Origin: Escherichia phage vB_EcoM-172859UKE1
DNA: 64,000 nucleotides
Strand: one strand, 5' to 3'
Sequence record: MZ234025.1
Shown here: in pieces, positions 3,052-57,703 of the stretch
Position numbering within the stretch: position 1 is the stretch's first letter
How the letters are laid out: the number at the start of each line of letters is the position of its first letter
Program-made: the position numbers and the translations under genes
Notes under the pieces: model-generated
What the model was told of the DNA's origin: nothing
The model's input: only the letters and a program-made list of their open reading frames with translations
The model's database searches: none

Positions 3052-3080
3052 TGTACAACCAAGGATGGTTGGAGTATAAT
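3052..3080 (+). promoter_or_regulatory. early promoter (PeSL-like): -35 TGTACA, hairpin CAACC-aaggat-GGTTG, -10 TATAAT
   Basis: TGTACA 3052-3057, TATAAT 3075-3080, 17-bp spacer containing stem-loop. Confidence 0.6.
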
Positions 3081-3106
3081 AAATTTTTCAACATGAGGAA
3101 TATAAA

Positions 3107-4042
3107 ATGGCTTTTATTACACGTAGAGAACTTATCAAAGAATTTACCTCGAACGCATATACTCCAGGACCTAATCCTATCCGTATGCCTGTAAAGACTC
3201 CTGAAGAGATTGAGGAAATCTGTTCATATTATGGGATTACTTCTCGTAAGTTTACTCAATTTGAATGCGTTACTAACACACCCGTTAAAGAGTTCATTAA
3301 AAATGGTGAGTTCAGCCGTTTATTAGCCAAACAGAAACTTCGTAATTTTTGTATCGGCGGTGAAGGACAATATTTCGCTAAACAGTTCCGAAATAACCTT
3401 AACAATCTGATGGCCATTGCTTCTCGTATTCGTCCTCAAGCAATTAACATGAAACATTTGAAATATACTTACGATAAGTTAGAAATCATGGTTATCAGTG
3501 AGAACGAGTTCACTCTTACGTATAAACCTAAGAATGATAACGTTGCTCGTGTATTCCACCAAGCGTTGGAAGTGTTAGGTGATAATATCCACCAGATTAA
3601 AGCAATTTATTCTCGTGAGCTTAATATTATCAACCCTATCAAGAATAAGGGCCATATCGCTATCCAGGCTCGTGTATCTATTGGTAAAAAGGTTCCTGCG
3701 CCACGGTGGCACAAAGACTCTGAATACTATCAAAATCTTAAAAAGGAAAATGCAACGTTCGAAGCGTCAATTACTACAACCCCAATTGGCAATGCTGAAG
3801 TTCAAGGTGCATATTTTACTGCTCCATCTATATACACTTCACCGTCGACTAAACTGGAAATCTCTAACGGTCTTCTTCCTGCCGAAGATTACTATTATAA
3901 TCAAATCAAAGCCACTGTGGACCAACTGTCTGTTGAACTTGACAAAGCACAAGCTAAGCTTCGTGATGCTCAACAAGTAGTTACCAAGCTCCAGTTGCAG
4001 TACTCTAAACTTTTTAACGCAATGAATGCATTAAAATCATAA
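3107..4042 (+). CDS. hypothetical protein with C-terminal coiled-coil-like region
   Basis: 311-aa ORF following PeSL-like promoter. Confidence 0.55.
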   Translation: MAFITRRELIKEFTSNAYTPGPNPIRMPVKTPEEIEEICSYYGITSRKFTQFECVTNTPVKEFIKNGEFSRLLAKQKLRNFCIGGEGQYFAKQFRNNLNNLMAIASRIRPQAINMKHLKYTYDKLEIMVISENEFTLTYKPKNDNVARVFHQALEVLGDNIHQIKAIYSRELNIINPIKNKGHIAIQARVSIGKKVPAPRWHKDSEYYQNLKKENATFEASITTTPIGNAEVQGAYFTAPSIYTSPSTKLEISNGLLPAEDYYYNQIKATVDQLSVELDKAQAKLRDAQQVVTKLQLQYSKLFNAMNALKS

Positions 4043-4046
4043 ATCA

Positions 4047-4076
4047 GTTTACAACCAAGGATGGTTGGAGTATAAT
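4047..4076 (+). promoter_or_regulatory. early promoter (PeSL-like): GTTTAC, hairpin CAACC-aaggat-GGTTG, TATAAT
   Basis: GTTTAC 4047-4052, TATAAT 4071-4076. Confidence 0.6.
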
Positions 4077-12360: not shown

Positions 12361-12395
12361 TATACAAACTCTTGAGAGATGAGTATAATTCTCTC
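12361..12395 (+). promoter_or_regulatory. early promoter TATACA / TATAAT flanked by inverted repeat GAGAGA/TCTCTC
   Basis: -10 TATAAT 12384-12389; near-identical to promoter at 57631. Confidence 0.55.
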
Positions 12396-12426
12396 GTTGG
12401 ATAATAAAATAACCGAGGAAAATAAT

Positions 12427-22122: not shown

Positions 22123-24834
22123 ATGAAAGAATTTTACTTAACGGTTGAACAGATTGGTGATTCAATTTTTGAACGTTACATCGATTCTAATGGCCGTGAA
22201 CGTACTCGTGAAGTAGAATATAAACCATCACTGTTTGCTCATTGTCCAGAAAGTCAGGCTACGAAATATTTCGATATCTACGGTAAGCCGTGTACTCGTA
22301 AGTTGTTCGCTAATATGCGTGATGCCTCCCAATGGATTAAACGCATGGAAGATATCGGACTTGAAGCACTTGGCATGGACGATTTCAAATTGGCGTATTT
22401 GTCTGACACTTATAACTATGAAATCAAATACGACCATACAAAAATTCGTGTGGCTAACTTCGACATCGAAGTAACATCTCCGGATGGGTTCCCTGAGCCG
22501 TCACAAGCAAAACATCCTATTGATGCTATCACCCATTATGACTCAATTGACGACAGGTTCTACGTATTTGATCTATTGAATTCTCCATATGGTAATGTAG
22601 AAGAATGGTCTATTGAAATCGCTGCTAAGCTTCAAGAACAAGGTGGTGATGAAGTTCCATCTGAAATTATCGATAAAATCATTTATATGCCGTTCGATAA
22701 CGAAAAAGAATTGTTGATGGAATATCTCAACTTCTGGCAACAGAAAACTCCTGTCATTTTGACTGGATGGAACGTTGAGTCATTTGATATTCCATATGTG
22801 TATAACCGAATCAAGAATATTTTTGGCGAATCTACTGCGAAACGTTTATCACCACATCGTAAAACTCGTGTTAAAGTTATCGAAAACATGTATGGTTCTC
22901 GTGAAATCATTACATTGTTCGGTATCTCTGTTCTTGATTACATTGACCTTTACAAAAAATTCTCTTTTACCAATCAACCGTCGTATTCTCTGGATTACAT
23001 TTCAGAATTTGAATTGAACGTTGGTAAACTGAAATATGACGGCCCTATTTCTAAGCTTCGTGAAAGCAATCACCAACGATATATTTCTTATAACATTATC
23101 GATGTGTATCGTGTATTGCAAATTGATGCTAAGCGTCAGTTCATCAACTTGAGCTTGGACATGGGTTATTATGCTAAGATACAGATTCAATCTGTGTTTA
23201 GCCCAATTAAAACATGGGATGCTATTATTTTTAATAGCCTTAAAGAACAAAACAAGGTGATTCCACAAGGTCGTTCGCATCCAGTTCAACCTTACCCGGG
23301 TGCTTTTGTTAAGGAACCTATTCCAAATCGATACAAATATGTGATGAGCTTCGACCTCACATCTCTGTATCCAAGCATCATTCGCCAAGTGAATATTAGC
23401 CCGGAAACAATAGCAGGAACGTTTAAAGTAGCTCCACTGCATGATTATATTAACGCAATCGCTGAACGTCCTTCAGATGTGTACAGTTGCTCTCCTAACG
23501 GCATGATGTATTATAAAGACCGTGATGGTGTAGTTCCAACTGAAATCACTAAAGTCTTTAATCAACGTAAAGAACATAAAGGTTATATGCTTGCGGCTCA
23601 ACGTAATGGTGAAATAATTAAAGAGGCATTGCATAATCCTAATCTTTCTGTTGACGAACCATTAGATGTTGATTATCGTTTCGACTTCAGTGATGAGATT
23701 AAAGAAAAGATTAAAAAGTTGTCCGCTAAGTCTCTTAATGAAATGTTGTTTAGAGCTCAACGTACTGAAGTTGCAGGTATGACTGCACAGATTAACCGTA
23801 AATTGCTCATCAACTCACTTTATGGTGCACTTGGCAACGTTTGGTTCCGTTATTATGATTTGCGTAATGCTACTGCAATCACAACATTCGGGCAAATGGC
23901 TTTACAGTGGATTGAACGTAAAGTTAATGAATACCTGAATGAAGTTTGTGGTACAGAAGGTGAAGCTTTCGTTCTTTATGGTGATACAGACTCCATTTAC
24001 GTATCTGCGGATAAAATTATTGATAAGGTTGGTGAATCTAAATTCCGTGATACTAACCATTGGGTAGACTTCTTAGATAAGTTTGCACGTGAACGTATGG
24101 AACCAGCTATTGATAGAGGTTTCCGTGAAATGTGTGAATACATGAACAATAAACAACACTTAATGTTCATGGACCGAGAAGCTATCGCTGGTCCTCCGCT
24201 TGGTTCTAAAGGTATTGGCGGATTTTGGACTGGTAAGAAACGTTATGCATTAAACGTGTGGGATATGGAAGGTACTCGTTACGCTGAGCCTAAACTCAAA
24301 ATCATGGGTCTAGAGACTCAGAAATCTTCGACTCCTAAAGCAGTACAGAAAGCTCTTAAAGAATGTATTCGTCGTATGCTTCAAGAAGGTGAAGAATCAT
24401 TACAAGAATATTTTAAAGAGTTTGAAAAAGAATTCCGTCAATTGAATTATATTAGCATCGCGTCGGTATCTTCTGCGAATAACATTGCTAAATATGACGT
24501 CGGTGGATTCCCTGGTCCCAAATGCCCGTTCCATATTCGTGGAATTCTGACGTATAACCGAGCTATCAAAGGTAATATTGATGCACCACAAGTTGTAGAA
24601 GGTGAAAAAGTATATGTTCTGCCTTTACGTGAAGGAAACCCATTCGGTGATAAATGTATCGCATGGCCTTCTGGTACTGAAATCACAGATTTAATTAAAG
24701 ACGATGTACTTCATTGGATGGACTACACTGTTCTCCTTGAGAAGACATTTATTAAACCACTTGAAGGATTCACATCAGCAGCTAAACTCGATTACGAGAA
24801 GAAAGCATCTCTGTTCGATATGTTTGATTTTTGA
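22123..24834 (+). CDS. 43: DNA polymerase gp43 (family B)
   Basis: 903 aa; exonuclease FDIE, polymerase motifs SLYPS and YGDTDS. Confidence 0.97.
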   Translation: MKEFYLTVEQIGDSIFERYIDSNGRERTREVEYKPSLFAHCPESQATKYFDIYGKPCTRKLFANMRDASQWIKRMEDIGLEALGMDDFKLAYLSDTYNYEIKYDHTKIRVANFDIEVTSPDGFPEPSQAKHPIDAITHYDSIDDRFYVFDLLNSPYGNVEEWSIEIAAKLQEQGGDEVPSEIIDKIIYMPFDNEKELLMEYLNFWQQKTPVILTGWNVESFDIPYVYNRIKNIFGESTAKRLSPHRKTRVKVIENMYGSREIITLFGISVLDYIDLYKKFSFTNQPSYSLDYISEFELNVGKLKYDGPISKLRESNHQRYISYNIIDVYRVLQIDAKRQFINLSLDMGYYAKIQIQSVFSPIKTWDAIIFNSLKEQNKVIPQGRSHPVQPYPGAFVKEPIPNRYKYVMSFDLTSLYPSIIRQVNISPETIAGTFKVAPLHDYINAIAERPSDVYSCSPNGMMYYKDRDGVVPTEITKVFNQRKEHKGYMLAAQRNGEIIKEALHNPNLSVDEPLDVDYRFDFSDEIKEKIKKLSAKSLNEMLFRAQRTEVAGMTAQINRKLLINSLYGALGNVWFRYYDLRNATAITTFGQMALQWIERKVNEYLNEVCGTEGEAFVLYGDTDSIYVSADKIIDKVGESKFRDTNHWVDFLDKFARERMEPAIDRGFREMCEYMNNKQHLMFMDREAIAGPPLGSKGIGGFWTGKKRYALNVWDMEGTRYAEPKLKIMGLETQKSSTPKAVQKALKECIRRMLQEGEESLQEYFKEFEKEFRQLNYISIASVSSANNIAKYDVGGFPGPKCPFHIRGILTYNRAIKGNIDAPQVVEGEKVYVLPLREGNPFGDKCIAWPSGTEITDLIKDDVLHWMDYTVLLEKTFIKPLEGFTSAAKLDYEKKASLFDMFDF

Positions 24835-24874
24835 TATAATGCCAAGGACGGCCAACTAATTAAATGAGAGAAAT

Positions 24875-25691: not shown

Positions 25692-27377
25692 ATGAAAAAA
25701 GCTGTTATTCTTGGTGCTGGATTGGCAACTCGTTTATATCCAATAACGCATCATATTCCTAAGGTGCTTGTTAACTATAAACAAGACACTATTCTGAGCA
25801 ATTTGTATACAATTTATTCTGACCTTGGCGCAGATGAAATTATTGTAGTAGTTCATTCAAAATTTGCTGAAACTGTTCGAGCTTATTGTGAGCAAGAAGG
25901 GTTCAATGTGACTATTCGTACAGTTGATGAAGCGTATGGTTCTGCTTATGCTCTTGCTAAATTACACAAAGATTTAGACGGCCATAATGTAATTGTTAAC
26001 TGGTGTGATATTATTCCTGATTTTGGTTCATGGTCTTGGAATGTTAACGCAATCTATGTTAAGGGTGACGAATGTCGATATAATTTCGACGGTGAAAATA
26101 TCACTAACGTAGGTTCAACAGGTGGTAATGTTGTAGGAATTTATCAGTTCAAAGACTGGGAATTCTATATGGGTTCTACCGATGAGGAAATTCATGAATA
26201 CTGCAAAGGACGTGATTTCGTAGAATTCCTTTACAGCGGCGCATTCAATAAATCAGAGCTTATGAATATCATCGACCTTGGTGATATGCCTAAACTTGAA
26301 AAGGCCCATGAAGTTCGTGAACTGAACCGTAGTTTTAATGCAGTTGAAATTGGCGAAGAAACTGTAACTAAATTCGCATTAACCGAACAGGGTCGAGCTC
26401 TTCAGAAAGATGAGATTTCGTGGTATTTGAAAGTGAAATCAGATTCAGTTCCTCAGTTAGTTTCTGTTAATGAAAATAACTTTGAAATGGAACGCATTAA
26501 AGGTAAGCCGGCATTTGAATATATTAAATCAAAATCAAGTCTTGCTCGTCCACAAATTGTTGATGCAATTTTAGATGCACTGAAATTCAGCACAGACACT
26601 TATTTTGTAAGTCCTGAAACTGTTCGTCGTGATTTCACTAAAGAATTCTATACGAAAGTTATTGATCGTTGTGAAAGCATTCAACCATTGATTGATTCAT
26701 TTGGTAAAATCACACACGTGAACTACACTAAGATTGGACGTCTGAAGCCAATGCTGAAACAAGCTTTAGAACACCTTATTCGTTATCATAACCGTTCTCA
26801 GGGACAGTACTCTGTTATTCATGGTGACCCGAACTTCAGTAATACTATGATTACTGATAACGGCGAAGTCAAGTTTATCGACCCTCGTGGATATTTTGGT
26901 GAAACCAAGATTTACGGGCCAAAATTGTATGATGAAGCTAAAGTGCTTTATGCTGTTTCAGGTTATGATGAATTCAATGCTAATCCGACCTGGGGGCAGT
27001 TTACTATTGATGAAACAACTTGTAATGTGACTATTAACATCAATCCATTAGTTTACAAATATGGAAAGATGAGTTCGTTTAACGAGTATCATCATTTGGC
27101 AGTGGCAATTATCTGGATTGCATTAGGTGGTTATTTCAAGAATAATCCACTTAAAGCGGTAGCCGCATATTATAAAGGTATGGAACTTCTGACTAAGCAA
27201 TTACGTAACATGGGCCGTGTACTTCAAGACGGCTCTATTAGTTATGACGTAGCAGAACCTGTAACGGCTACTCTGATTACAAAAAATCCTGGTAAATGGG
27301 TACTAACTGATAAAGAAACTGGTGTTTCCTATCGTCCAATCGGTGGCGATATCACTCATCAATGGGAACGAATCTAA
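25692..27377 (+). CDS. bifunctional sugar-1-phosphate nucleotidyltransferase / kinase-like protein
   Basis: N-terminal AVILGAGLATRLYPIT (NTP-transferase G-x-G-x-R); C-terminal HGDPNFSN and IDPRG resemble APH/anomeric sugar kinase catalytic motifs. Confidence 0.7.
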   Translation: MKKAVILGAGLATRLYPITHHIPKVLVNYKQDTILSNLYTIYSDLGADEIIVVVHSKFAETVRAYCEQEGFNVTIRTVDEAYGSAYALAKLHKDLDGHNVIVNWCDIIPDFGSWSWNVNAIYVKGDECRYNFDGENITNVGSTGGNVVGIYQFKDWEFYMGSTDEEIHEYCKGRDFVEFLYSGAFNKSELMNIIDLGDMPKLEKAHEVRELNRSFNAVEIGEETVTKFALTEQGRALQKDEISWYLKVKSDSVPQLVSVNENNFEMERIKGKPAFEYIKSKSSLARPQIVDAILDALKFSTDTYFVSPETVRRDFTKEFYTKVIDRCESIQPLIDSFGKITHVNYTKIGRLKPMLKQALEHLIRYHNRSQGQYSVIHGDPNFSNTMITDNGEVKFIDPRGYFGETKIYGPKLYDEAKVLYAVSGYDEFNANPTWGQFTIDETTCNVTININPLVYKYGKMSSFNEYHHLAVAIIWIALGGYFKNNPLKAVAAYYKGMELLTKQLRNMGRVLQDGSISYDVAEPVTATLITKNPGKWVLTDKETGVSYRPIGGDITHQWERI

Positions 27378-35517: not shown

Positions 35518-35547
35518 GTTTACAAGCACCACATACTGTGTTACTAT
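35518..35547 (+). promoter_or_regulatory. early promoter GTTTAC / TACTAT
   Basis: GTTTAC 35518-35523, 18-bp spacer, TACTAT 35542-35547. Confidence 0.55.
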
Positions 35548-46132: not shown

Positions 46133-46162
46133 GTTTACAACCAAGGACGGTTGGAGTATAAT
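46133..46162 (+). promoter_or_regulatory. early promoter (PeSL-like) GTTTAC, hairpin CAACC-aaggac-GGTTG, TATAAT
   Basis: GTTTAC 46133-46138, TATAAT 46157-46162. Confidence 0.6.
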
Positions 46163-46192: not shown

Positions 46193-46687
46193 ATGAATAT
46201 CAATACTACGTCTACTTACATCCTGAAAGACGAAAAACAAATCAACTGGTACGGTGCTTCAGTGCGAGCTTATGAAAAGTTTTGTGAAATTTTAGGTGCC
46301 ACTCAAGGTAATAGTTTCACTATTGTTAACTTCATTAAACAAGTTGAAGGCCCTTGGTTATTCTTAGAAATTAAAAATTCATACGGTACAATTTCTACTA
46401 CTGCCATCCCAAGCACCGACTTTGAACTGTTGATTGAAGAAGCACCTGTTAAAGATGGTCTCCACTTTGATATGGATATCGTTTGTATGTACGGTACTCT
46501 GATTAAGCCTATTGAGCCTACTGATTTATTGTGTAAATATGTTTCAATTCGACGCCCATTCGATGGTCCAGTAAATGGATGGGTAACTGATCAGTGGATT
46601 GAAGATGGGGTTGAACTTCTGAACGTTGTTCATGCCGGTGATTTTAGTGTGGTTCCACGTAGTGCAGTAGTTAATATTCTAAATTAA
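46193..46687 (+). CDS. hypothetical protein, member of tandem paralog family (C-terminal DQWIEDG...GDF motif)
   Basis: 164-aa ORF from ATG at 46193 (track start is TTG inside promoter). Confidence 0.5.
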   Translation: MNINTTSTYILKDEKQINWYGASVRAYEKFCEILGATQGNSFTIVNFIKQVEGPWLFLEIKNSYGTISTTAIPSTDFELLIEEAPVKDGLHFDMDIVCMYGTLIKPIEPTDLLCKYVSIRRPFDGPVNGWVTDQWIEDGVELLNVVHAGDFSVVPRSAVVNILN

Positions 46688-46690
46688 TGT

Positions 46691-46719
46691 TGTACATCCA
46701 AGGATGGATGGAGTATAAT
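46691..46719 (+). promoter_or_regulatory. early promoter (PeSL-like) TGTACA, hairpin CATCC-aaggat-GGATG, TATAAT
   Basis: TGTACA 46691-46696, TATAAT 46714-46719. Confidence 0.6.
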
Positions 46720-46748
46720 GAATTCAATTTAACAAAGAGAGAAAAATT

Positions 46749-47204
46749 ATGATTACTATTGGTGAAATTAAGCGTGTATCAACTGCATCCCGGTCTAAAG
46801 CCGCAGGTCGTCTGGTTGAAGTGGTAGGACTTCGCACAAATGGCATGGGACGCATTAAAGAAGTTAAAGTTCGAATCATTCCTAGTTTTGGACGTCAGGA
46901 TACTCAGCACGCTTACGTAAGTCCTAAATTCTTGGAAACTCCTGTGAGCGCTCATTTTGCTTCTACTGAACCTAATGCACAGTTCAAATGGGCCTTGTGT
47001 AAAGGTGTTGAATTCCAGACTGATAAAGAATTTGACTTCATCGATGAATACGGTTATCCAAGCAAAACTGATACTATGTGCGGCTTCATTAGTGACCAAT
47101 GGGTTGAAGATGGTGAAAAGTTATACAATATCGTATTCTTAGGTGACTTCCGAGTTGTTAAAGAATCTGAAATCACTCGTTATGTGTCTCCTCGTAAAGC
47201 TTAA
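46749..47204 (+). CDS. hypothetical protein, tandem paralog family member
   Basis: 151 aa; shares STASRSKAAGRLVEV and C-terminal ISDQWVEDGEKLYNIVFLGDF with the next ORF. Confidence 0.5.
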   Translation: MITIGEIKRVSTASRSKAAGRLVEVVGLRTNGMGRIKEVKVRIIPSFGRQDTQHAYVSPKFLETPVSAHFASTEPNAQFKWALCKGVEFQTDKEFDFIDEYGYPSKTDTMCGFISDQWVEDGEKLYNIVFLGDFRVVKESEITRYVSPRKA

Positions 47205-47213
47205 GGAATTATT

Positions 47214-47633
47214 ATGAATATTGTAAATCTCTCTACAGGTGATTACGTATATGTATCTGTTGCTTCTCGCTCTAAAGTTGCCGGGAAGTTGGTTGAAGTT
47301 CTTTCTGTGAGTGATCCGGTTTTTGGTCGTAACCAAGTTAAAGTTCGTGACGCCGATGGTAACATTGGTTACGTTAAAAGCCAATTTATTGAACCAGAAG
47401 AAAAAGCGTTCAAATGGAAACTGGGCAGATCAGTTTTAGTTGTAAAAGACTACGAGTTCACCATTGCCGCTGCGACAGATGGAACACCGTGGACAACGAA
47501 TCAAGTTGCTGGTTTTATTTCGGACCAATGGGTGGAAGATGGTGTTAAGCTTTATAACATTGTTTTCGCTGGGCAGTTCATGGTAGTTCCTGAGTTCCAA
47601 ATCAAAAAATATTGTCCAGCATCTTTTGCATAA
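47214..47633 (+). CDS. hypothetical protein, tandem paralog family member
   Basis: 139 aa; SVASRSKVAGKLVEV and ISDQWVEDGVKLYNIVFAGQF. Confidence 0.5.
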   Translation: MNIVNLSTGDYVYVSVASRSKVAGKLVEVLSVSDPVFGRNQVKVRDADGNIGYVKSQFIEPEEKAFKWKLGRSVLVVKDYEFTIAAATDGTPWTTNQVAGFISDQWVEDGVKLYNIVFAGQFMVVPEFQIKKYCPASFA

Positions 47634-52851: not shown

Positions 52852-55065
52852 ATGATTATTGAAACGGCTAAAGAAACGATTATTGGTTCAGGCGGTAAGA
52901 GCACAGCATTTACTATTCAAGGCAATAGCAAAGTTTATAAGATTTTGTCTAATGACCTTTATACAAACAAAGAATTGGCTTGTGTACGTGAATTAATCAC
53001 AAACTGTATCGATGGACAAATTCTTAACGGTTGCACTGATAAGTTTATTGTTCAGGCTCCAGGTCGTTTAGACCCACGTTTTGTAGTTCGAGACTTTGGT
53101 CCTGGTATGAGTGATTTCACCATTCGAGGTAATGACGAAGAGCCAGGAATCTATAACTCATATTTTGCTTCAACTAAAACATCGAGTAACGATTTCATTG
53201 GTGGATTCGGACTCGGCTCTAAAGCTCCACTAGCATATACCGATACGTTTAACCTTACGTCTTATCACAACGGTGAAGTTCGTGGTTACGTAATCTACCA
53301 AGATGACACGGGTCCACAAATTAAGCCAACCTTTGTAGATAAGATGGGCCCTGATGACCGTACGGGTGTAGAAGTAGTTGTACCGGTTAACCCAGAAGAT
53401 TTTGAAAAGTTCGCATCCGAAATTGCTTATGTTATGCGTCCTCTCGGCGATATTGCAGAAGTTCGTGGTGTTAAAGATATTAAATACTTCCCGGAATTCG
53501 ATGATGTTTATTTAGCCAAGGAAGCTCCATGGGGTGAACGTGGTAATATCATGGCTGTTTATGGCGGTATTGTATATCCAATCGGAAGTGTTATTAAAGA
53601 ACAAACATGGATGATGACACGATGCACTACAGCTTATATTAAATTCCCAATGGGTGAACTAGATGTTGCTCCGTCTCGCGAAGCATTGTCATTTGATAAA
53701 CGTACAGTAGCAAATATCCATAAACGCGTTGCAGAAATCGATGCTAAATTGTTCGCTGAAGATTCTAAGAAATGGATTGATTGTAAATACCCACGACATG
53801 TGTTCCGCGAAATTGATTCTCTTGGCTATACCGCTCGTAAATACATGGAAAAGGCCGGGTCTAATATTGAATCACTGAAATACTCTAAAGAACAACTAAC
53901 TTATTCTGAGTTGTACAAACGTTTTAAAATGGGACCTGAGTGGTGTAATCTTGGTGTCGTATACGATATCGTTGAATCCCCTCGTCTTCGTCGTATTCGT
54001 GAAAGTGGTAGCTCATCATCAACCATTTCAATTAACAGCCTGATTGGCATTAACATTAAAAACGTTGAAATTGTTATTGACGATGTTAAGGGACGCGTTC
54101 CATTAATGCGAGCTCTTAATTCAATTGAAATGTCTAAAGACGAGGTTAAATTATCCGGTAAAGTTCCACGCGGTTTTGGTAAAAGCGTACTATTCGTTGA
54201 CCCTACAGACGAAGACGCAATGAAACTTCTGGAACGCCTTAAAGTTATCTTTGATGGCGACAACATTAACATGTACAAGACTTCAGAGCTTTTACAAATC
54301 GTTAAGCCATGGATTGAAGTCAGGAAACGGACTAATGAGCCTCGTCCTAAATCCCCGAGTGCTCATCGATTCTTTAAGAATGAAAACGATGTTTGGGTAT
54401 CAGAAGACCTCTTTATTCCGGCAAGTGAAGCAGATGAAATCCAAGGTTATGCTATAGTTCGTAATCGTTCTAATGCTGAATGTCTTGACGCAGATAAAGG
54501 TTGGTTGAACTATGACTCCAATTTCTTGACCCGTATTGCTGATTTGTCAGGTATTAAAGAGTTCACTGTAGTTCGTCCACAGATTGCTAAGAAAGTTCGT
54601 AAACTTGGTGAAGTAGAATGCTTGTTCGAAAAATCAATTAATGACTATATTACGCTAATTGATAAAGTGGATTATGATGAGTATGTATCACCAAGTCGTA
54701 GAGCACAGCCTTATTTGAATCATATTACTCGTAACGAAGAGCTTAACTTCCTTAGTAAGTATTTTAGCTCTAAGAACAAAGAAATCAGTAAAGACTTTGC
54801 AAAACTCTCAACAGTAAATAATCGTTGGGGATGGAATCGATTCGCAGGTGCTACTAATACAGACCTGAATAAGAAGTTAGAATTGTGTGCTAAAATTTTC
54901 GATAAGCTTAAAGATAATGCTTACGATAATGATGATAAAATGGTTATTGAATTCGAAACCAATTATCATATTGTGTCAGAATACATGGGACGACGTGGTA
55001 CTCTTTCCAAAGAACAGGTCGCTCAAATCGTTAAATTCATGAAGGCCGTGGAAGCGGCCAAATAA
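52852..55065 (+). CDS. rIIA: rIIA membrane-associated protein
   Basis: 737 aa; N-terminal ATPase-like region ...ELITNCID...GPGMSD...FIGGFGLGSKA closely matches T4 rIIA. Confidence 0.9.
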   Translation: MIIETAKETIIGSGGKSTAFTIQGNSKVYKILSNDLYTNKELACVRELITNCIDGQILNGCTDKFIVQAPGRLDPRFVVRDFGPGMSDFTIRGNDEEPGIYNSYFASTKTSSNDFIGGFGLGSKAPLAYTDTFNLTSYHNGEVRGYVIYQDDTGPQIKPTFVDKMGPDDRTGVEVVVPVNPEDFEKFASEIAYVMRPLGDIAEVRGVKDIKYFPEFDDVYLAKEAPWGERGNIMAVYGGIVYPIGSVIKEQTWMMTRCTTAYIKFPMGELDVAPSREALSFDKRTVANIHKRVAEIDAKLFAEDSKKWIDCKYPRHVFREIDSLGYTARKYMEKAGSNIESLKYSKEQLTYSELYKRFKMGPEWCNLGVVYDIVESPRLRRIRESGSSSSTISINSLIGINIKNVEIVIDDVKGRVPLMRALNSIEMSKDEVKLSGKVPRGFGKSVLFVDPTDEDAMKLLERLKVIFDGDNINMYKTSELLQIVKPWIEVRKRTNEPRPKSPSAHRFFKNENDVWVSEDLFIPASEADEIQGYAIVRNRSNAECLDADKGWLNYDSNFLTRIADLSGIKEFTVVRPQIAKKVRKLGEVECLFEKSINDYITLIDKVDYDEYVSPSRRAQPYLNHITRNEELNFLSKYFSSKNKEISKDFAKLSTVNNRWGWNRFAGATNTDLNKKLELCAKIFDKLKDNAYDNDDKMVIEFETNYHIVSEYMGRRGTLSKEQVAQIVKFMKAVEAAK

Positions 55066-57630: not shown

Positions 57631-57665
57631 TGTACAAACTCTTGAGAGCAGAGTATAATGCTCTC
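57631..57665 (+). promoter_or_regulatory. early promoter TGTACA / TATAAT flanked by inverted repeat GAGAGC/GCTCTC
   Basis: TGTACA 57631-57636, 17-bp spacer, TATAAT 57654-57659. Confidence 0.55.
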
Positions 57666-57703
57666 ATGGATTACAAAAACATTAATCAATTGAGGAAATT
57701 AGC

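Follow-up and report, generated by a model that had tools for sequence, protein, structure and literature searches.

The RNA sites of CsrA, a major post-transcriptional regulator of bacterial hosts, are defined both by selection in vitro and by natural targets. In vitro ligand selection (SELEX) yielded the CsrA consensus RUACARGGAUGU, in which ACA and GGA are 100% conserved; 44 of the 55 SELEX ligands have a 6-nucleotide (nt) loop closed by AC/GU pairing, and most have no more than four contiguous pairs (reviewed in PMC7652899). The same review describes RsmE on an ANGGAN hexaloop, with contacts to the A and to GGA and with affinity reduced by extra loop bases, and gives CAGGA(U/A/C)G as the sequence repeated in CsrB. 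Here we describe a family of small hairpins with a conserved GGA-containing loop in a 64,000-nt stretch of the genome of Escherichia phage vB_EcoM-172859UKE1 (sequence record MZ234025.1), this whole stretch being referred to below as the window. The hairpins are under selection, appear to act as RNA on early transcripts that read through from upstream, and may be binding sites for host CsrA.

The window derives from a T4-type phage of the RB69/JS09-like group (genus Mosigvirus), an 8-kb sample being ~97-98% identical to RB69/JS09-like relatives. The annotation of these relatives gives the gene order nrdC.8, nrdC.6, nrdC.5, nrdC.3 ... nrdD ... gene 43 ... dexA, motB.1, motB, and the + strand, the strand of early transcription, carries all of the listed genes from nrdC.8 to motB. 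An initial annotation of the window had listed six hairpins with the loop AAGGA(T/C) on different stems, and all six are found where it placed them. Each is on the + strand and intergenic, with the stop codon of the upstream open reading frame (ORF) 4-10 nt 5' of the site and the next start codon 29-49 nt 3'. The sequence CCAAGGAYGG occurs exactly six times in the window, always on the + strand. AAGGAY by itself is not enriched (64 seen, 68 expected); with a stem of at least 4 base pairs (bp) it occurs five times, whereas 300 dinucleotide shuffles of the window averaged 0.29 such cases and never exceeded 3. A covariance model of the relatives and the window sites retrieves just the six window sites, at 23.5-26.9 bits with the next best match at 11.6 bits, and as the six were also in its training set only the gap to that next match is informative. 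No matches were found when the whole window was scanned against Rfam at gathering thresholds. Relaxing the loop to A.GGA. in the window, T4 and KpV477 adds only coding-region hairpins with non-C-G closure, which we judge to be chance.

Four of the hairpins are flanked by T[GT]TACA and TATAAT, which stand 17 bp apart, in line with the initial annotation, which had placed four of them in early-promoter spacers. At site 3061 the hairpin CAACC-AAGGAT-GGTTG (3056-3071, + strand, 26.0 bits, present in the RNA fold) is within TGTACA-17 bp-TATAAT (3052-3080, + strand, 10/12 promoter match), 5' of an nrdC.5-like ORF (ATG 3107). The same hairpin recurs at site 4057 (4052-4067, + strand, 26.9 bits) within TTTACA-17 bp-TATAAT (4048-4076, + strand, 11/12), 5' of an nrdC.3-like ORF (ATG 4105). 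Between dexA (stop 46127) and motB.1 (ATG 46193), site 46143 has CAACC-AAGGAC-GGTTG (46138-46153, + strand, 26.2 bits) within TTTACA-17 bp-TATAAT (46134-46162, + strand, 11/12), and between motB.1 (stop 46687) and motB (ATG 46749), site 46700 has CATCC-AAGGAT-GGATG (46695-46710, + strand, 26.3 bits) within TGTACA-17 bp-TATAAT (46691-46719, + strand, 10/12); in this last hairpin both arms have changed relative to the other copies, an A:T pair having become T:A. With matches at 10-11 of 12 positions these are the best promoter-like sequences of their regions and are predicted to be T4-type sigma-70 early promoters, taken here as a GTTTAC(A/T)-type -35, a 17 +/- 1 bp spacer, a TAnnnT -10 and an early-strand gene downstream. 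Their RB69 orthologs are inside the predicted early promoters Pe:52042 (3052), Pe:51019 (4048), Pe:8947 (46134) and Pe:8387 (46691) (Nolan et al. 2006).

The other two sites, 2005 and 24844, lack a canonical -35/-10 spacer. The hairpin ACCC-AAGGAC-GGGT (2001-2014, + strand, 25.6 bits) lies between an nrdC.8-like ORF (stop 1993) and an nrdC.6-like ORF (ATG 2056); its 3' arm abuts TATAAT (2015-2020), with no usable -35 at 16-18 bp. Its orthologs in T4 (53345), JS98-like and other phages read TTATACC-AAGGAT-GGTATAA, and the RB69 copy at 53074 is not among the predicted promoters. The hairpin GCC-AAGGAC-GGC (24841-24852, + strand, 23.5 bits) begins 6 nt past the stop of the DNA polymerase gene 43 (22123-24834), is preceded by TGATATAAT, lies 23 nt ahead of the next ORF (ATG 24875), and is outside any -35/-10 spacer.

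The four promoter copies share a core of ~32 nt, T[GT]TACA-[AT]CC-AAGGAY-GG[AT]-TGGAG-TATAAT, beyond which their flanks are unrelated. Being near-identical, they count within the window as about one independent observation, and the case for the element rests on relatives. The explanation that the initial annotation had set against its own proposal, a by-product of a longer duplicated block without stem covariation, is ruled out: identity is limited to the ~32 nt, the adjacent genes nrdC.3, nrdC.5 and nrdC.6 are not detectable paralogs, and the stems covary in relatives.

The search of related phages that the initial annotation had suggested finds the motif with at least 12 different stems on one loop core. 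In bacteriophage T4 the early strand carries five such hairpins, each between genes, at about 2444, 49902, 50959, 53345 and 167073 in genome order. By locus, they read TACCAC-AAGGAT-GTGGTA between 60 and rIIA.1, TTATACC-AAGGAT-GGTATAA between nrdC.8 and nrdC.7, CCAC-AAGGAT-GTGG between nrdC.5 and nrdC.4, AGCC-AAGGAT-GGCT between nrdC.4 and nrdC.3, and TACCAC-AAGGACC-GTGGTA between denB and ndd.6. Forms with CATCC/GGATG and CTTCC/GGAGG stems lie 5' of nrdC-family genes in JS98-like and other T4-like genomes, and Klebsiella phage KpV477 has TACCAC-AAGGAT-GTGGTA immediately 3' of gene 43. The stems CAACC, CATCC, CTTCC, ACCC, AGCC, GCC, CCAC, TACCAC, ATACCAC, ATATCAC, TATCAC, TTATACC and ACGCAC are thus found across T4, RB69, JS98-like phages, KpV477, PM2, ZZ1 and uncultivated T4-like contigs. 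In these searches the nrdC.3 protein used singly returned close relatives only, and the pattern AAGGAYN5GAGTATAAT was too loose for IMG/VR, giving mostly random matches, and tighter patterns were used instead.

A set of orthologs independent of the motif was obtained by fetching loci with the C-terminal 400 residues of gp43. In 14 of these 31 T4-like loci, among them Pectobacterium phage PM2, a GGA hairpin lies within ~25 nt past the gene 43 stop, with loops AAGGAU, AAGGAC, AUGGAC, AUGGAAC and AAGGAAC on stems GCC/GGC, GCC/GGU, CCAC/GUGG, TACCAC/GUGGUA, AUACCAC/GUGGUAU and AUAUCAC/GUGAUAU. Given these hairpins downstream of gene 43 in relatives, the weakest window site, 24844 with its 3-bp stem, is the ortholog of a conserved element and not a chance match. 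Acinetobacter phage ZZ1, from another subfamily, has TATCAC-AGGGAT-GTGATA 10 nt past the stop of 43A; its gene 43 (L337, NC_018087.3 ~46773) is split into 43A and 43B with six small ORFs between the halves, and an IMG/VR relative (L325) has AAGGAT where ZZ1 has AGGGAT after 43A. T4 itself has no GGA hairpin after gene 43 (L135 13014-13200; record 27014-27200, minus strand), and its 183-nt gap contains a terminator-like hairpin (GGACCTCCAGGTCC followed by a T run) and a separate early promoter; the element downstream of gene 43 is thus present in some genera and missing from others.

In the alignment of the gene 43 orthologs 84.6% of cells are complementary to their partners, compared with 22-59% when the partners are slid, and both sides have changed in four of the seven pairs. 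The covariation score of 0.288 compares with 0.120 in shuffles, none of 500 shuffles scoring as high. The hairpin is real and under selection. The same loop core on varied stems, with compensatory changes in a set assembled independently of the motif, bears out the structured element or loop-specific site that was first suggested from the window. When 23 distinct instances are compared, the columns without variation are the closing C9 and G16 and the loop positions A10, G12, G13 and A14 (A1, G3, G4 and A5 of the loop). The loop first described as AAGGAY is the dominant form, although it is not strict and is better written A-N-GGA-N, since AUGGAC, AGGGAU, AAGGAA and the 7-nt AAGGAAC, AUGGAAC and AAGGACC also occur. 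Stems range from 3 to 8 bp, and three classes of loci have 7-nt loops. Phage S143_2 has AAGGAA at the ortholog of site 2005 (L001 2505).

As RNA, the invariant positions read C-A-N-G-G-A-N-G, a C-G-closed hexaloop with invariant A and GGA that agrees with the CsrA/RsmA consensus. GGA occupies loop positions 3-5 in all instances and is unpaired in the apical loop, as expected of a CsrA site, and the variable positions (A, U or G at N2; U, C or A at N6) are those where the protein tolerates change. The CCAC-type hairpin reads ACAAGGAUGU and matches ACARGGAUGU at 10/10 positions; type A has CC/GG in place of the SELEX AC/GU. Escherichia coli CsrB contains C-AGGAU-G units, one of them reading GUCAAGGAUGAGC. 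In the E. coli glgC leader a hairpin GGA at -41 is followed by a GGA in the Shine-Dalgarno (SD) sequence at -10, 31 nt apart; in the phages the hairpin GGA is at -35 to -49, and in ~22 of 29 instances an SD GGA is present at -10, 27-39 nt from the hairpin GGA, a distance set by promoter geometry; GAGGA is the commonest SD of these phages in general. In the window, the SD GAGGAA and start codon at 3094-3109 (+ strand) place a GGA 34 nt past the hairpin GGA, a candidate second contact for a CsrA dimer. GGA-containing SDs also precede the ATGs at 2056, 4105 and 46193, and the SDs of 24875 and 46749 have no GGA.

The Escherichia, Klebsiella, Pectobacterium and Acinetobacter hosts of these phages are all generally known to have CsrA or RsmA. 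From the agreement in sequence and structure we predict, with confidence that stops just short of even, that the hairpin is a high-affinity binding site for host CsrA (RsmA in some hosts) on read-through early RNA. Somewhat more tentative is the wider proposal that T4-type phages including T4 encode CsrA sites in their early-promoter spacers and that their read-through mRNAs would be controlled by CsrA or would titrate it.

Several observations weigh against CsrA as the reader of the loop. The two-site geometry is weak evidence, as these phages commonly have an SD GGA at -10. CsrA strictly needs less uniformity than the loop shows, N2 being mostly A, which could reflect common descent or a factor of tighter specificity; in addition, some stems reach 6-8 bp and some loops have 7 nt. 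In phage JS09 (L122, NC_024124.2 ~162350) the ortholog of site 46143 has the loop AAAGAT, in which GGA is lost and the core is otherwise identical. The hairpin is close enough to the upstream stop codon to be reached by a terminating ribosome, which may often keep it unfolded, and five to six sites per genome are few for a sponge. Most copies sit within promoter elements, for which a CsrA site accounts by genome compaction alone. A link between CsrA and the mRNAs of T4-type phages was not found in the literature searched. Described connections between the Csr system and phages are that csrA knock-down has broad, probably pleiotropic fitness effects against phages, that CsrB is unusually stable during T4 infection, and that an unrelated phage encodes a CsrA homologue.

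The structure and its covariation would equally be expected if the RNA loop were read by some other factor, which we consider a lesser though real possibility. T4-type phages have many uncharacterised small early proteins, and the loop, AAGGAY in nearly all cases, is narrower than ANGGAN. AAGGA is also complementary to the anti-SD and the element lies 4-10 nt past stop codons, but substitutions of N2 (A, U, G) would break a 5-nt pairing of the SD type, a 6-nt loop on a stable stem would have to open to form a 5-bp helix with rRNA, and the genuine SD is 30-40 nt further downstream. The invariant closing C-G and loop A1, moreover, are specific determinants of CsrA/RsmE binding, and the T4 RNA-binding proteins RegA, gp32, gp43 and RegB have other targets (PMC3014915). 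TifA was considered as a reader of the loop and ruled out, as its RNA binding is non-specific.

Whether the element acts as RNA or DNA can be addressed from the way in which it varies. One DNA-level explanation is that the inverted repeat in the spacer forms a cruciform or a protein site by which a subset of early promoters is tuned or shut off. Most copies are placed exactly in the -35/-10 spacers of strong early promoters, their arms overlap the -35 or the extended -10/-10, and a second class of hairpins (see below) wraps the -10 box; furthermore, the mechanism of T4 early-promoter shut-off is unexplained (PMC2988021), and T4 early promoters have extra conserved positions (Hinton's review). 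However, the arms vary (~12 variants) around a fixed asymmetric centre, the reverse of an operator for a dimer, and a palindromic operator of a dimeric DNA-binding protein is ruled out, its symmetric half-sites not being conserved while the centre is invariant. Stems of 3-7 bp with 6-nt loops would also make poor cruciforms. In the CAACC type the loop covers positions 4-9 of the spacer, in the CCAC type positions 8-13, and this 4-bp difference in register makes a fixed RNA polymerase contact unlikely. Copies without a usable promoter include two of the six in the window (2005 and 24844) and several in relatives (L148/L327, and L205, where the SD directly follows the hairpin). The initial annotation had framed the hairpins as a promoter class; with these copies outside the canonical spacer and the loop register differing, that framing is not supported, and the hairpin is probably something other than a feature of promoters in themselves.

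The paired arms point in the same direction. The 3' arm of CCAC-type hairpins coincides with the extended -10 of the promoter itself, for which the T4 early-promoter consensus is TGTG(A/G)TA(C/T)(A/T)AT, and the 5' arm tracks the A/G choice at promoter position -13, TCAC occurring with GTGA and CCAC with GTGG. Where a helix ends in a G.T (G.U in RNA) position, more Watson-Crick pairs follow beyond it in six of six cases, compared with none of four for A.C; G.U thus extends helices and A.C does not, a strand-specific behaviour that fits RNA from the early strand and not duplex or cruciform DNA. The hairpin is present in the minimum-free-energy RNA fold in nine of ten contexts. It also lies 5' of the position at which its own promoter is predicted to start transcription, and would therefore be present only on transcripts reading through from upstream. 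We infer that the element works in RNA form, as a hairpin on early transcripts reading through from upstream, rather than as a DNA operator, and regard the DNA-level explanation as unlikely.

It is more doubtful still that the hairpin is functionless, a palindrome carried by descent within a promoter cassette that spreads by recombination, as has been proposed for PeSL cassettes. Promoter-mediated shuffling in T4-type phages is documented (PeSL papers), the near-identical 32-nt core stands at four unrelated loci of the window, the CCAC type is found at different loci in different phages, and the JS09 isolate tolerates a loop mutation. Yet descent leaves unexplained some 12 complementary stem variants and the G.U pairs that extend helices, as well as the tracking of position -13 by the 5' arm, the keeping of A-N-GGA-N while neighbouring spacer bases change, and the maintenance of promoter-less copies across genera.

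Cleavage by the phage endoribonuclease RegB, which cuts GGAG and rarely GGAU in early intergenic RNA, can be set aside as very improbable and is largely refuted for T4: although the loop GGA is unpaired, RegB alone cuts a small hairpin RNA with an unpaired GGA (PMC3014915, PMC1702504) and in type-A copies the stem is immediately followed on its 3' side by GGAG and then UAUAAU, the fourth base of the loop motif is U, C or A and not G (RegB cuts GGAA very poorly), a stem stands where RegB requires an A-rich single-stranded 3' part and structure protects against RegB, and only 55.2 and motB.2, neither of them a hairpin site, were cut among all 30 intergenic T4 GGAU sites examined by primer extension (Durand et al. 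2006), so that the T4 AAGGAU hairpins before rIIA.1, nrdC.7, nrdC.4 and nrdC.3 are resistant, assuming that they are among the 30. A mini-ORF starting within AAGG-ATG (MVGV*) is ruled out by the AAGGAC copies, which have no ATG. None of the six hairpins resembles an intrinsic terminator, each being followed by GAGTATAAT, TATAAT or CAACTAAT with no T run.

If CsrA is the reader, the arrangement suggests how the sites could operate. The hairpin, with a 3-8 bp stem and a C-G-closed loop A-N-G-G-A-N (mostly AAGGAU/C), lies just past the upstream stop codon in an intergenic gap of ~50-60 nt that is filled by a promoter and a ribosome-binding site. In such crowded gaps the 16-18-nt hairpin would be placed in the stretch free of promoter sequence demands, the 17-bp spacer, with arms partly borrowed from the end of the -35 box or from the extended -10/-10 box. 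Transcripts from the embedded promoter would have no hairpin and would escape CsrA, and those reading through would carry it. The second RNA-binding face of a tethered CsrA could then contact the SD GGA of the next gene 27-39 nt downstream, as in the glgC leader, and this bridging may damp downstream translation, or CsrA binding may alter decay, either of which would make expression of the read-through cistron depend on host CsrA activity. An alternative outcome of the same binding is that abundant early mRNA would titrate CsrA.

A second class of hairpins has arms that flank the -10 box. In the window it is found at 12361-12400 and 57631-57670, with examples GAGAGA-TGAGTATAAT-TCTCTC and GAGAGC-AGAGTATAAT-GCTCTC, which differ by an A:T to C:G change on both arms. 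The T4 motB promoter has GGGACC-AGAGTATAAT-GGTCCC (L124, record ~7190-7150, minus strand), and the class also includes GTGTTAGGC-TGTGATAAAATG-GCCTAACAC and hairpins after gene 43 (L305/L306/L328). At motB and after gene 43, different phages carry either the GGA-loop class or the -10-flanking class. Many early promoters of the window (e.g. 1433, 34970, 35542, 48241, 59960 and 62459) have in common an extended -10, in which TAnnAT is preceded by TGTGT or ATGA, as well as agaCCTATCAACta, a conserved start region 3' of the -10 box; the spacer at 35542 contains another small hairpin, CACA-TAC-TGTG, that uses the TGTG element. Hairpins with a C(TTCG)G loop and a stem of at least 4 bp number ten on the + strand of the window, this being the commonest loop among hairpins with 6-nt loops, and are probably of the UUCG tetraloop terminator or stabiliser type known from T4. 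Within 46193-47633, motB and the next motB-like ORF are 43% identical over 145 amino acids, and motB.1 has a stretch of ~30 amino acids at its N-terminus that is common to both; motB.1, motB and the motB-like ORF appear to be a small family of tandem genes.

Few viruses have been studied as thoroughly as T4, yet a conserved, covarying hairpin family of this kind was not found in the literature searched. If CsrA reads the loop, a major regulator of the host would act on, or be titrated by, the early mRNAs of virulent phages, phage gene expression would sense the carbon, growth and metabolic state of the host, and this would be the first direct link of the Csr system to a classical virulent phage. 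A single 17-bp stretch would then serve both as promoter spacer and as a protein-binding site in RNA, separating read-through from locally initiated transcripts. Even if the reader is not CsrA, the covariation reveals a genuine element in RNA (or in a single strand), and its partner would be worth finding.

Among known systems, the CsrA/RsmA hairpins share with the phage element a short stem whose apical loop holds GGA, and a C-G pair that closes a 6-nt loop A-R-G-G-A-U; most phage copies also have a second GGA in the SD ~30 nt downstream that may correspond to the one in glgC (-41/-10). Unlike known CsrA sites, the phage hairpins are encoded by virulent phages, are intercistronic rather than in a 5' leader and sit in promoter spacers, and unlike SELEX-type sites their stems are often longer (to 7-8 bp) and some of their loops have 7 nt. 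PeSL cassettes (Arbiol 2010, Comeau 2014) similarly combine an intergenic, strong sigma-70-type early promoter with a stem-loop and are repeated at unrelated loci in the hyperplastic regions of T4-type genomes. The PeSL stem-loop, however, is G/C-rich, lies 5' of the -35/AT-rich region and is a terminator or attenuator, whereas the hairpin described here lies between -35 and -10 or over the -10, has a fixed GGA loop and lacks a U tract, and is thus not a PeSL stem-loop. The RegB/S1 targets (GGAGRAYARAA) are likewise intergenic in early RNA and need an unpaired GGA, but the fourth base in the phage hairpin is not G and its 3' context is stem rather than A-rich. There is also a parallel in gene arrangement with T4 genes e, soc, I-TevI and 49 (PMC3014915), where a promoter lies inside hairpin-encoding DNA, the internal transcripts are without the structure, and the two mRNA species are thereby treated differently. 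In those genes the promoters are late and the hairpin sequesters the ribosome-binding site directly, whereas here the hairpin lies 30-40 nt 5' of the SD and presents a loop that is predicted to bind protein.

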